Shown here: piece after piece, positions 32,420-37,095 of the stretch
How the letters are laid out: each line of letters begins with the position of its first letter
How positions within the stretch are numbered: position 1 is the stretch's first letter
Source: Escherichia coli
GTDB lineage: Bacteria > Pseudomonadota > Gammaproteobacteria > Enterobacterales > Enterobacteriaceae
NCBI RefSeq assembly: GCF_003334405.1
Contig: NZ_QOWM01000008.1
Length of the DNA: 64,000 bases
Reading direction: 5' to 3' (one strand)
The notes under the pieces: model-generated
Databases searched by the model: none
What the model saw: only the letters and a program-made list of their open reading frames with translations
What the model was told of the DNA's origin: nothing
Made by a program: the position numbers and the translations under genes

Positions 32420-33418
<999 letters not shown>

Positions 33419-33434
33419 TTTCTTGCGTTATTTT

Positions 33435-33475
33435 CGGCACCTTTTATGTAGCGAAGGTGCCGGAATATATTCTCT
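33435..33475 (+). terminator. Candidate cysB terminator
   Basis: cggcacctt-(10 nt loop)-aaggtgccg followed by T-rich gaatatattctcttttgtt. Confidence 0.4.
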
Positions 33476-33736
33476 TTTGTTACTTATTTCTATACCGTGC
33501 ACAATATTTTTATCCCTCATATTTATAGGGTAAATTACCTGTAAAGTAGTGTCTAATTACCCGCCTCGCAAACTCCAGTTTTCAAATATCTATTTCAGGT
33601 CAAAAGATTGAATTATTCACTGGAGACGATTCGTAAATTCGCTGGATTTTTGACTAAAGTTTCTTTAGGATTTGTCTCATCGTATGATTAATTACACCAA
33701 TCGTTCAACGTCTTGCTGATAAGTGATGGCGATTAT

Positions 33737-33877
33737 ATGAGGTTAGCAATGCCTTCTGGAAATCAGGAACCCCGCCGCGATCCTGAATTAAAACGTAAAG
33801 CCTGGCTGGCGGTTTTTCTTGGTTCTGCACTTTTCTGGGTGGTTGTCGCACTGCTGATTTGGAAAGTGTGGGGATAA
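33737..33877 (+). CDS. ymiA: Small membrane protein YmiA (46 aa)
   Basis: ATG 33737; MRLAMPSGNQEPRRDPELKRKAWLAVFLGSALFWVVVALLIWKVWG; too short for the ORF track. Confidence 0.6.
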   Translation: MRLAMPSGNQEPRRDPELKRKAWLAVFLGSALFWVVVALLIWKVWG

Positions 33878-33879
33878 CT

Positions 33880-34047
33880 ATGGTCGGTCAGGAGCAACTG
33901 GAGTCGTCACCATTATGCCAGCATAGTGACAATGAAACAGAAACGAAACGGGAATGTTCCGTCGTTATTCCAGACGACTGGCAACTAACATCGCAGCAGC
34001 AAGCCTTTATAGAACTGTTTGCTGAAGATGATCAGCCGAAACAATAA
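33880..34047 (+). CDS. yciX: Small protein YciX (55 aa)
   Basis: MVGQEQLESSPL... inside ORF 33859-34047; ATG 2 nt after ymiA stop. Confidence 0.6.
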   Translation: MVGQEQLESSPLCQHSDNETETKRECSVVIPDDWQLTSQQQAFIELFAEDDQPKQ

Positions 34048-34160
34048 TTATCATCATTCTTATTACCCATTTTTAATGAATTAAAGGGCTTTTAATACAC
34101 CGCAGCAATAACAGCTTGAGTTATCTCAACACAAAATAATAACCGTTAAGGGTGTAGCCT

Positions 34161-34256
34161 ATGATCAACACAAATATGAAATATTGGTCCTGGATGGGCG
34201 CGTTTTCTCTGTCGATGCTCTTCTGGGCCGAACTCCTCTGGATCATTACTCACTGA
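34161..34256 (+). CDS. Candidate 31-aa hydrophobic small protein MINTNMKYWSWMGAFSLSMLFWAELLWIITH
   Basis: ATG preceded by aagggtg Shine-Dalgarno; single predicted TM helix; followed by terminator at 34264-34293. Confidence 0.35.
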   Translation: MINTNMKYWSWMGAFSLSMLFWAELLWIITH

Positions 34257-34263
34257 TCCTTGA

Positions 34264-34293
34264 CCCCGCTGCGGCGGGGTTGTCATTTGCTTT
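34264..34293 (+). terminator. Rho-independent terminator after the 31-codon ORF
   Basis: ccccgc-tgcg-gcgggg followed by ttgtcatttgcttt. Confidence 0.45.
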
Positions 34294-34419: not shown

Positions 34420-37095
34420 ATGTCGTCAACCCTACGAGAAGCCAGTAAGGACACGTTGCAGGCCAAAGATAAAACTTACCACTACTACAGCCTGCCGCTT
34501 GCTGCTAAATCACTGGGCGATATCACCCGTCTACCCAAGTCACTCAAAGTTTTGCTCGAAAACCTGCTGCGCTGGCAGGATGGTAACTCGGTTACCGAAG
34601 AGGATATCCACGCGCTGGCAGGATGGCTGAAAAATGCCCATGCTGACCGTGAAATTGCCTACCGCCCGGCAAGGGTGCTGATGCAGGACTTTACCGGCGT
34701 ACCTGCCGTTGTTGATCTGGCGGCAATGCGCGAAGCGGTTAAACGCCTCGGCGGCGATACTGCAAAGGTTAACCCGCTCTCACCGGTCGACCTGGTCATT
34801 GACCACTCGGTGACCGTCGATCGTTTTGGTGATGATGAGGCATTTGAAGAAAACGTACGCCTGGAAATGGAGCGCAACCACGAACGTTATGTGTTCCTGA
34901 AATGGGGAAAGCAAGCGTTCAGTCGGTTTAGCGTCGTGCCGCCAGGCACAGGCATTTGCCATCAGGTTAACCTCGAATATCTCGGCAAAGCAGTGTGGAG
35001 TGAATTGCAGGACGGTGAATGGATTGCTTATCCGGATACACTCGTTGGTACTGACTCGCACACCACCATGATCAACGGCCTTGGCGTGCTGGGGTGGGGC
35101 GTTGGTGGGATCGAAGCAGAAGCCGCAATGTTAGGCCAGCCGGTTTCCATGCTTATCCCGGATGTAGTGGGCTTCAAACTTACCGGAAAATTACGTGAAG
35201 GTATTACCGCCACAGACCTGGTTCTCACTGTTACCCAAATGCTGCGCAAACATGGCGTGGTGGGGAAATTCGTCGAATTTTATGGTGATGGCCTGGATTC
35301 ACTACCGTTGGCGGATCGCGCCACCATTGCCAATATGTCGCCAGAATATGGTGCCACCTGTGGCTTCTTCCCAATCGATGCTGTAACCCTCGATTACATG
35401 CGTTTAAGCGGGCGCAGCGAAGATCAGGTCGAGTTGGTCGAAAAATATGCCAAAGCGCAGGGCATGTGGCGTAACCCGGGCGATGAACCAATTTTTACCA
35501 GTACGTTAGAACTGGATATGAATGACGTTGAAGCGAGCCTGGCAGGGCCTAAACGCCCACAGGATCGCGTTGCACTGCCCGATGTACCAAAAGCATTTGC
35601 CGCCAGTAACGAACTGGAAGTGAATGCCACGCATAAAGATCGCCAGCCGGTCGATTATGTTATGAACGGACATCAGTATCAGTTACCTGATGGCGCTGTG
35701 GTCATTGCTGCGATAACCTCGTGCACCAACACCTCTAACCCAAGTGTGCTGATGGCCGCAGGCTTGCTGGCGAAAAAAGCCGTAACTCTGGGCCTCAAGC
35801 GGCAACCATGGGTCAAAGCGTCGCTGGCACCGGGTTCGAAAGTCGTTTCTGATTATCTGGCAAAAGCGAAACTGACACCGTATCTCGACGAACTGGGGTT
35901 TAACCTTGTGGGATACGGTTGTACCACCTGTATTGGTAACTCTGGGCCGCTGCCCGATCCTATCGAAACGGCAATCAAAAAAGGCGATTTAACCGTCGGT
36001 GCGGTGCTGTCCGGCAACCGTAACTTTGAAGGCCGTATCCATCCGCTGGTTAAAACTAACTGGCTGGCCTCGCCGCCGCTGGTGGTTGCCTATGCGCTGG
36101 CGGGAAATATGAATATCAACCTGGCTTCTGAGCCTATCGGCCATGATCGCAAAGGCGATCCGGTTTATCTGAAAGATATCTGGCCATCGGCACAAGAAAT
36201 TGCCCGTGCGGTAGAACAAGTCTCCACAGAAATGTTCCGCAAAGAGTACGCAGAAGTTTTTGAAGGCACAGCAGAGTGGAAGGGAATTAACGTCACACGA
36301 TCCGATACCTACGGTTGGCAGGAGGACTCAACCTATATTCGCTTATCGCCTTTCTTTGATGAAATGCAGGCAACACCAGCACCAGTGGAAGATATTCACG
36401 GTGCGCGGATCCTCGCAATGCTGGGGGATTCAGTCACCACTGACCATATCTCTCCGGCGGGCAGTATTAAGCCCGACAGCCCAGCGGGTCGATATCTACA
36501 AGGTCGGGGTGTTGAGCGAAAAGACTTTAACTCCTACGGTTCGCGGCGTGGTAACCATGAAGTGATGATGCGCGGCACCTTCGCCAATATTCGCATCCGT
36601 AATGAAATGGTGCCTGGCGTTGAAGGGGGGATGACGCGGCATTTACCTGACAGCGACGTAGTCTCTATTTATGATGCTGCGATGCGCTATAAGCAGGAGC
36701 AAACGCCGCTGGCGGTGATTGCCGGGAAAGAGTATGGATCAGGCTCCAGTCGTGACTGGGCGGCAAAAGGTCCGCGTCTGCTTGGTATTCGTGTGGTGAT
36801 TGCCGAATCGTTTGAACGAATTCACCGTTCGAATTTAATTGGCATGGGCATCCTGCCGCTGGAATTTCCGCAAGGCGTAACGCGTAAAACGTTAGGGCTA
36901 ACCGGGGAAGAGAAGATTGATATTGGCGATCTGCAAAACCTACAACCCGGCGCGACGGTTCCGGTGACGCTTACGCGCGCGGATGGTAGCCAGGAAGTCG
37001 TACCCTGCCGTTGTCGTATCGACACCGCGACGGAGTTGACCTACTACCAGAACGACGGCATTTTGCATTATGTCATTCGTAATATGTTGAAGTAA
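34420..37095 (+). CDS. acnA: Aconitate hydratase A
   Basis: 891-aa ORF. Confidence 0.97.

Follow-up and report, generated by a model that had tools for sequence, protein, structure and literature searches.

The interval between cysB and acnA of Escherichia coli holds two very small genes, ymiA and yciX, that stand back to back, and it raises the question of whether yciX is translated on its own or in dependence on ymiA. We analyzed this locus in a window of 64,000 nt (the whole stretch of E. coli DNA under study, from contig NZ_QOWM01000008.1), and all coordinates given here are positions of that window. The original prediction had assigned 46 amino acids to YmiA and 55 to YciX and had viewed the short step from the ymiA stop codon to the yciX start codon as a sign of translational coupling. 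Both lengths and the back-to-back arrangement were read from the sequence at exact coordinates and are the same in RefSeq. The distance was likewise read directly from the sequence, with the ymiA TAA at 33875-33877 followed by 2 nt and then by the yciX ATG at 33880. Neither gene was found at its true length in the list of open reading frames (ORFs) prepared for the window, as had also been noted; this list has 54 aa (from TTG 33713) and 62 aa (from TTG 33859) in their place.

The gene order in the E. coli window is cysB-ymiA-yciX-ymiC-acnA (Table 1). The ymiA product is MRLAMPSGNQEPRRDPELKRKAWLAVFLGSALFWVVVALLIWKVWG (46 aa), opened by the ATG at 33737-33739, and the yciX product is MVGQEQ...DDQPKQ (55 aa), read from the ATG at 33880 to a stop codon that ends at 34047. 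On DNA that is 100% identical to the window, ymiA (141 nt), yciX (168 nt) and ymiC have RefSeq annotations at exactly matching positions. The RefSeq name 'protein YciX' was assigned here by this identical DNA, by the syntenic position after ymiA and by protein matches of 100% identity. A 1-kb query spanning the cysB-acnA interval had matches in 5,422 of 5,426 complete E. coli genomes, and the 71-nt junction was recovered full-length in 5,409 of the 5,426. The product of the third gene, ymiC, scored 66.3 bits against NCBIfam NF041484 (cut-off 42), and the gene lies inside a match to Rfam STnc180 (RF02079) at 34088-34290 (198 bits).

Table 1. Features of the cysB-acnA region of E. coli, in positions of the window.
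Feature	Position	Strand	Description
cysB	32444-33418		
Candidate ymiA-yciX-ymiC promoter	33658-33688	+	PhoP-box-like and -10-like elements; putative
ymiA	33737-33877	+	46 aa; stop TAA 33875-33877; small inner-membrane protein with a single C-terminal TM helix (tail-anchor-like)
Second in-frame ymiA ATG (42-aa form)	33749-33751	+	Shine-Dalgarno (SD) element GAGGT at 33739-33743
Predicted E. coli mRNA hairpin	33801-33892	+	ymiA 33801-33836 pairs with 33857-33892 (SD, stop, AUG); uncertain
SD-like GGGG for yciX	33870-33873	+	Within the last two ymiA sense codons TGG GGA; 6 nt 5' of the ATG
Stop-start junction TAA-CT-ATG	33875-33882	+	Spacer 'CT' at 33878-33879, 2 nt
yciX	33880-34047	+	55 aa; soluble; N-terminal half fast-evolving and probably disordered; C-terminal module conserved
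Conserved YciX module, residues 30-50 (IPDDWQLTSQQQAFIELFAED)	33967-34029	+	Motif IPxSWxL(T/S)xxQxxFIxxF; predicted helix 38-47
ymiC	34161-34256	+	31-aa small membrane protein; third operon gene; ORF, RefSeq and NCBIfam
acnA	34420-37095		

YmiA had been described as a one-helix membrane peptide, and its 19-aa hydropathy peak, its match to the NCBIfam YmiA model and the published membrane location of a GFP fusion all agreed with this description (PMC11429745). The peak 19-aa hydropathy was 2.54, with KRK preceding the helix. The protein scored 96.8 bits against NF000536 (cut-off 30, equivalog model), with residues 5-46 aligned to model positions 1-42, and YmiA homologues carry Pfam PF22868. GFP-YmiA was found at the membrane or cell periphery (PMC11429745), and PRM mass spectrometry gave about 1000-3000 copies of the 46-aa protein per cell (PMC12529367).

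Three ymiA starts have been annotated over time, giving 54, 46 and 42 aa. By TetRP, the main ymiA initiation signal was at the ATG of the 46-aa form, and a tryptic peptide, LAMPSGNQEPR, rules out a YmiA that is of 42 aa only (PMC4909307). An independent study by inhibitor-based initiation profiling found that ymiA 'likely initiates with MRLAMP' (bioRxiv 10.1101/511675). When upstream regions were compared among species, the ATG at 33749 was invariant in all 73 distinct sequences and was the sole ymiA start common to every species, and the AGG codon that precedes it, which is part of the GAGGT SD element, never varied. The ATG of the 46-aa form was replaced by ACG, GCG, GAG or AAG in 18 of the 73. 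Predicted SD pairing was -6.8 kcal/mol at the start of the 42-aa form compared to -5.0 kcal/mol at that of the 46-aa form. Taken together, the 46-aa YmiA is the experimentally supported product of E. coli, and the conserved part is a 42-aa core.

We examined yciX in 86 loci, of which 80 came from a YmiA-profile scan of one genome per species (covering Escherichia, Citrobacter, Salmonella, Enterobacter, Lelliottia, Leclercia, Kosakonia, Phytobacter, Trabulsiella, Cedecea and other genera) and six were additional. An ORF of 49-59 codons with the YciX motif followed ymiA in 85 of these, the lone exception being Salmonella enterica subsp. arizonae, in which the yciX copy has decayed. In Salmonella and E. 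fergusonii, for example, ORFs of 55-56 codons with the motif W-x-L-T-x-Q-Q-x-A-F-I were present downstream of ymiA. A word-indexed search and RefSeq naming had returned Escherichia/Shigella alone; the idea of YciX as an Escherichia orphan was ruled out by these ORFs after ymiA elsewhere. When 1.84 billion representative proteins were searched with a profile, 75 matched; nearly all were small members of the YciX family, and in the few large ones the similarity was confined to Q-rich stretches. The remotest relatives were found in Atlantibacter, Mangrovibacter, Pantoea and Izhakiella, where the motif is kept and the annotation is 'hypothetical protein'. At all four distant loci examined (including those of Atlantibacter, Mangrovibacter and Pantoea) yciX directly followed a YmiA-like gene, and at three of the four it was located between cysB and acnA. 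By homology and synteny, YciX orthologues span the Enterobacteriaceae and appear to reach the Erwiniaceae (Pantoea).

Conservation of YciX is concentrated in the C-terminal part of the protein. Residues W34, L36, Q40, F43 and I44 were invariant among 48 aligned orthologues, and an AlphaFold2 monomer model built with these 48 had a pLDDT of 94 for residues 31-40, a predicted helix at 38-47 and an N-terminal half predicted to be disordered. By the method of Nei-Gojobori, applied to all pairs with usable divergence, dN/dS of yciX was 0.20 in the last 27 alignment columns (C-terminal) and 0.79 in the rest; that of ymiA was 0.13. As judged from these substitution patterns, ymiA and yciX encode real proteins, and both ORFs are evidently under purifying selection. 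The protein had also been called acidic and soluble. This stood for E. coli YciX, which is non-hydrophobic with a pI of 4.05 and a net charge of -9, but not for the family: the median pI of 82 YciX orthologues was 8.96, and acidity is therefore a trait of the lineage. Searches with YciX returned DUF4280 alone in Pfam (E = 0.12), no family model in NCBIfam (best E = 0.12) and no relative in a profile search of the PDB (best E = 0.57). A literature search found neither a functional study of yciX nor direct protein or initiation data on it, and the TetRP supplementary text lists ymiA and not yciX.

For a ribosome to pass from ymiA to yciX, the two must share an mRNA. By use of promoter reporters, ymiA, yciX and ymiC were previously assigned to one PhoQ-dependent operon, and in promoter fusions the sole active region was that upstream of ymiA, which was PhoQ-dependent and low-Mg2+-induced (PMC11429745). 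Membership of ymiC in the operon is also given in the sPepFinder preprint. Both ymiA and yciX are on the same strand and, by the above operon assignment, on the same transcript (PMC11429745). A promoter or a terminator would not fit into the 2 nt between them, and when the cysB-to-ymiC region was scanned, terminator-like hairpins were detected only after cysB (33432-33465) and after ymiC (34261-34282). Thus, co-transcription of ymiA and yciX is supported by the spacer, the terminator positions and the published promoter fusions.

Upstream of ymiA, a PhoP-box-like AGTTTC-TTTAG-GATTTG at 33658-33674 and a -10-like TATGAT at 33683-33688 form a candidate promoter block (33658-33688) that was nearly invariant across 81 aligned upstream regions. 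A strict PhoP-box pattern, searched with 1 mismatch allowed, had no match in the ymiA promoter region, and we therefore call the box PhoP-like only. A generic sigma-70 scan found no promoter on the + strand upstream of ymiA. Regarding the physiology of the pair, yciX is listed among the Cpx-regulon genes upregulated by Salmonella in egg white (PMC6374596), inhibition of LolCDE led to repression of yciX (PMC5105897), and overexpression of YmiA resulted in a longer lag phase and elongated cells (PMC11429745).

The stop-start junction was then compared among the 86 loci (Enterobacteriaceae and relatives), and in 85 of them the yciX start and the ymiA stop were -4 to +4 nt apart. By the first selection rule for the start codon, the gap was +2 in 53 loci, +1 in 14, +3 in seven, +4 in three and 0 in four (two with ATG and two, of Salmonella, with GTG), and an ATGA-type overlap of -4 or -1 was seen in five; where the overlap is -4, as in four of these, there is a second in-frame ATG at +2. 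The standard deviation of the gap was 0.8 nt for ymiA-yciX, compared at the same loci to 25 nt for yciX-ymiC, 117 nt for yciX-acnA and 114 nt for cysB-ymiA. Gaps of 1-3 nt were also found in the relatives from Atlantibacter and Pantoea. In Mangrovibacter the gap is 14 nt, and tight spacing is therefore not obligatory. The ymiA stop codon was TAA in 63 loci, TGA in 16 and TAG in seven, all four bases were seen at both positions of the spacer, and the relative reading frame of the two genes shifts with the gap. Since the gap is kept while stop codon, spacer bases and frame all vary, the length of the junction is constrained and its sequence is not. By this comparison, the junction appears to be under selection for its geometry and not for its sequence. 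The start codon of yciX was ATG in 70 of 72 distinct junctions. In Salmonella it is a GTG that abuts the ymiA TAA, a weaker start codon that is located exactly at the site of the terminating ribosome.

The SD-like element of yciX is part of the coding sequence of ymiA. Its duplex with the anti-SD had an energy of -5.5 kcal/mol in E. coli, and among 56 distinct junctions the pairing had a median of -5.9 and was never weaker than -4.7 kcal/mol, compared to a median of -2.0 kcal/mol at random positions of the window. Each of the positions from -10 to -7 was a G in 63-68 of the 72 junctions, and the TGGGG run, which belongs to Trp-Gly codons, was nearly invariant. In two species with a YmiA that ends in Trp-Ser, the run is TGGAGC, which yields a canonical GGAG.

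Taken together, the conserved spacing from stop to start and the ever-present SD in the 3' end of ymiA provide strong, though indirect, comparative support for coupling, and we consider it fairly probable that translation of yciX is coupled to that of ymiA by termination-reinitiation (TeRe). In its anatomy the pair matches what is reported for TeRe in E. coli: both cistrons share a transcript, the start is a few nt from the stop, and the upstream ORF contains the SD. Huber et al. in 2019 reportedly found that TeRe in E. coli is efficient only when the first gene carries, within its 3' end, an SD for the second. The 2-nt distance of ymiA-yciX may be viewed against reporters of three native pairs in E. 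coli, in which widening of a -1 overlap to +2 nt resulted in loss of 5-70% of reinitiation, with 30-95% kept, and a gap of 38 nt removed 80-100% (PMC10666635). A search of the literature for a measurement of yciX initiation, a test of its dependence on ymiA or a mention of coupling of the pair found none.

The mechanism that we propose is as follows. A PhoQP-activated mRNA carries ymiA-yciX-ymiC in this order, and its first two cistrons both yield real proteins. After termination at the ymiA stop (33875-33877), the ribosome would be held by the GGGG at 33870-33873, which is derived from the last codons of ymiA itself, and would restart on the yciX ATG located 2 nt downstream. Reinitiation of this type would tie the output of YciX to that of YmiA. 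In E. coli and its closest relatives, a hairpin over the yciX start may disfavor independent initiation and thus add to the dependence. The two products are a tail-anchored-type peptide of the inner membrane (YmiA) and a small, presumably cytoplasmic protein (YciX) that is conserved only in its C-terminal IPxSWxLTxxQxxFIxxF helix motif. We infer that yciX depends on translation of ymiA and that fixed stoichiometry may be the benefit selected.

The alternative that survives best is independent initiation, in which 30S subunits bind the yciX SD and ATG de novo and the short gap is a result of genome compaction and co-transcription. The presence of an SD and an ATG that belong to yciX makes initiation of this kind possible, and several observations agree with it. 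The SD is of ordinary strength, with its -5.5 kcal/mol similar to values for ymiC (-6.4 kcal/mol) and cysB (-6.7 kcal/mol); ATG prevails as the start codon, as described above; the gap of Mangrovibacter is tolerated; and the yciX ribosome-binding site (RBS) is predicted to be slightly less structured than control windows across species, with an opening cost (positions -13 to +6, 42 species) of 7.5 compared to 9.0 kcal/mol in controls. However, compaction alone fails to explain a gap of 0-4 nt in about 80 species in which the neighboring spacers differ in length by tens to hundreds of nt, and it leaves the GTG starts at 0-1 nt after the stop (Salmonella, Atlantibacter) unexplained. For E. coli, free 30S binding is also disfavored by a predicted RBS opening cost of 10.3 kcal/mol. 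Based on these considerations, we regard independent initiation as rather unlikely.

Unfolding of mRNA by the ribosome was considered as a second alternative. By this mechanism, a hairpin formed with ymiA codons would lock the yciX SD and AUG and would be melted by the ribosome that translates ymiA, such that reinitiation by the same ribosome would be unneeded. Consistent with this, the predicted MFE fold of the E. coli mRNA (33800-33940) pairs 33823-33836 with 33861-33873, which includes the SD, pairs 33801-33813 with 33880-33892, which includes the yciX AUG, and has the stop codon paired; the RBS opening cost in Escherichia loci was 10-14.6 kcal/mol, above that of control windows. By contrast, the MFE of -45.2 kcal/mol has a z-score of just -1.27 and is ordinary for the composition, RNAalifold of 63 sequences returned zero consensus pairs, and pair counts were without covariation beyond that of shuffles, both arms being constrained by coding. 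Nor would unfolding by itself require that a gap of 0-4 nt be conserved. Thus, we hold this mechanism to be improbable. As a feature of the whole family, the hairpin was ruled out by the lack of consensus pairs among the 63 sequences and by covariation at or below that of shuffled controls; RBS occlusion was rejected as a general property of the family by the slightly lower structure of the RBS relative to controls, with the RBS more structured than controls in 31% of the 42 species. The predicted fold may possibly represent an Escherichia-specific reinforcement and not a conserved mechanism.

That yciX is non-functional, that the pair is the frameshifted or split remnant of one ORF, or that the two are joined by frameshifting or readthrough is highly improbable: earlier K-12 annotation tables merged the names as 'yciX(ymiA)', ORFs of 91-97 aa from metagenomes fuse the N-terminal sequence of YmiA with YciX, and in Salmonella, E. 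fergusonii and some Citrobacter both ORFs are in frame with only a stop between them, but the C-terminal module of YciX has the dN/dS of 0.20 noted above with synonymous change nearly saturated, the 82 distinct orthologues have kept a length of 49-59 aa, the intervening stop codon is present in all loci, a slippery heptamer was not evident by inspection of the 3' half of ymiA, and the fusion ORFs require a 17-nt deletion that loses the TM helix and is absent from the best-matching complete E. coli genomes. The relation of the reading frames differs between genera with gaps of 0-4 nt, which excludes any single recoding model, and fusion by frameshift or readthrough was therefore ruled out by the genus-varying frame together with a deletion unseen in the best-matching genomes.

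If termination-reinitiation is the mode of yciX translation, a further question is what the coupling may serve. Closely spaced gene pairs were found to be enriched for subunits of heteromeric complexes (PMC10666635), and this enrichment suggests a possible interaction of YmiA with YciX. When YmiA-(GGGGS)6-YciX was modeled by AlphaFold2 with a paired alignment of 54 rows, the pTM was 0.24, a weak test that was read without a contact map, and the pLDDT of the YciX motif went from about 94/85 in the monomer to about 75/77 in the linker fusion. As modeled, the linker fusion lends no support to the idea that coupling serves assembly of a complex. A broader proposal is that YmiA-YciX may constitute a conserved two-part module of envelope/Mg2+ stress across the Enterobacterales, in which YmiA would be a tail-anchored membrane peptide with YciX as its cytoplasmic partner, the invariant YciX helix would dock on the conserved RRDPELKRK cytoplasmic tail of YmiA or on a larger target, the junction would set ratio and place, and YciX would be a family-wide small regulator. 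We view this proposal as speculative and, on the present evidence, unlikely.

Much of what is described here was known: both genes, the ymiA start, the operon and its regulation had been reported, coupling of close cistrons is textbook knowledge, and a stop-start gap of 2 nt is a routine feature of operons. The conservation of a 0-4 nt junction throughout the family, as well as the breadth and motif of the YciX family, were unrecorded in the sources searched. The ymiA-yciX junction offers a clean natural test case for reinitiation at a non-overlapping (+2) site between two very small ORFs. YciX itself, annotated as 'hypothetical' outside of Escherichia, is conserved widely and has a C-terminal motif that is sharply delimited. 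If the pair acts together in the PhoPQ response to low Mg2+, a module composed of a membrane peptide plus a soluble partner would join the catalogue of small proteins.

Among known protein families, YmiA (NF000536, PF22868) and the RefSeq 'protein YciX' are those to which the proteins of the window belong, as the E. coli reference members, with YciX not covered by a profile model. Compared to classical coupling by unfolding of mRNA (PMC12548453), the likeness is a predicted pairing of the E. coli yciX RBS with codons of the gene upstream; the difference is that this pairing in ymiA-yciX is statistically undistinctive and is neither conserved nor covarying. With respect to regulation and gene content, the pair resembles mgtS-mgtT and yriA-yriB, which are also low-Mg2+-induced, PhoQ-dependent and composed of adjacent small ORFs with at least one membrane peptide (PMC11429745). 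Unlike ymiA and yciX, with their spacer of 2 nt, these two pairs have out-of-frame overlaps. The 50-aa limit of that study left out yciX with its 55 aa (PMC11429745). In the layout of its junction, ymiA-yciX is similar to the TeRe pairs hyfH-hyfI, ydbH-ynbE and menD-menH, which are likewise co-directional and carried on one mRNA, with a stop and a start within a few nt, an SD internal to the upstream gene and a spacing that is kept (PMC10666635). These three pairs have overlaps of 1 or 4 nt and a dependence that was measured, whereas ymiA-yciX has a gap of +2 nt (0-4 across species) and a dependence that is proposed; in further contrast to the three, the ymiA-yciX products are very small (46 and 55 aa).

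The start of ymiA was found to vary between species when the E. coli sequence was compared to the enterobacterial loci L001-L086. Of 73 species, 18 lack a start codon at the position of the experimentally mapped ATG of the 46-aa form. The ATG of a 42-aa form and the AGG preceding it, with SD sequence GAGGT, displayed no variation in the same set (73 of 73 sequences). An ATG 11 codons upstream (53-aa form) was detected in most species outside Escherichia, while E. coli carries a TTG (54-aa ORF) one codon upstream of the position of this 53-aa ATG. Zero synonymous changes were observed in the AGG TTA GCA of the ymiA start, which suggests that this stretch is constrained as RNA and not as protein.

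The region 5' of ymiA, comprising promoter and leader, was very strongly conserved among 81 sequences and includes a PhoP-box-like element, a -10-like hexamer and a leader block. A strict PhoP-box pattern search gave no match at the PhoP-box-like element, and a generic sigma-70 scan of the + strand returned no promoter in the ymiA upstream region.

Coordinates of features at the ymiA-yciX-ymiC locus (window positions)
Feature	Position	Strand	Remark
Promoter and leader	~33620-33736	+	5' of ymiA
PhoP-box-like AGTTTCTTTAGGATTTG	33658-33674	+	within conserved upstream region
-10-like TATGAT	33683-33688	+	within conserved upstream region
Leader block TGATAAGTGAT..CGATT	within ~33620-33736	+	conserved upstream of ymiA
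ymiA start region	33713-33751	+	compared with L001-L086
ATG, 46-aa form	33737	+	experimentally mapped
ATG, 42-aa form	33749	+	
17-nt segment deleted in fusions	33822-33838		
STnc180 match	34088-34290	+	Rfam
ymiC ORF	34161-34256		
Terminator hairpin	34261-34282		

YciX is encoded at window positions 33880-34047 on the + strand. Most of the 82 YciX orthologues analyzed were basic (median pI of 8.96), because they carry many Lys and Arg residues in the N-terminal half, which is variable. Strong acidity, as in E. coli YciX (pI of 4.05), was found in only about one quarter, including Escherichia, Salmonella and some Citrobacter sequences; the C-terminal tail was the only part consistently acidic.

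Decay of yciX was detected in a single case among the 86 loci, that of Salmonella enterica subsp. arizonae (L062, ~2139-2330, downstream of ymiA), where stops occur in frame and the C-terminal motif is gone, with ymiA intact. At the more distant locus of Mangrovibacter phragmitis (L090, 1486-1501), TGA-TAA closes ymiA; the ATG called for yciX follows 14 nt further on, with no obvious SD at this called start. This exception shows that tight ymiA-yciX spacing is not obligatory across all lineages.

Five metagenome-derived ORFs of 91-97 aa (P0003, P0004, P0013, P0038 and P0039) join the YmiA N-terminus to YciX. In P0004, P0013 and P0038, the fusion results from a 17-nt deletion (TCTGCACTTTTCTGGGT) through which the transmembrane helix is lost; P0003 and P0039 are joined otherwise. 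Because junction-specific BLAST against the best-matching complete E. coli genomes gave only wild-type (two-piece) matches and no fusion, these ORFs are judged to be rare alleles or assembly errors.

In Escherichia marmotae L002 and L003, the stretch starting at 2331 holds a gene of the type typical of group II introns, for a reverse transcriptase/maturase (Pfam RVT_1 and GIIM). This gene is located after ymiC at the place of acnA in other loci and is absent from E. coli. In E. coli EC931 (H1, NZ_CP049118.1 45269-47045), the cysB-acnA intergenic segment is broken by IS1A and matched in two pieces over 1.8 kb. Since a record titled 'Chryseobacterium sp. 18061' (L033, CACSKA010000006.1) carries a typical enterobacterial ymiA-yciX locus, this assembly is probably mislabelled or contaminated; its YmiA is 87% identical to that of E. 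coli.

A full-length match to the enterobacterial sRNA STnc180 (198 bits, E = 1e-42) was found to contain the entire ymiC ORF and the terminator hairpin. Thus, the 'sRNA' is the 3' portion of the ymiA-yciX-ymiC mRNA. This region codes for the ymiC product, a validated membrane protein of 31 aa, and STnc180 may be an RNA of 3' origin, or one with a dual function.
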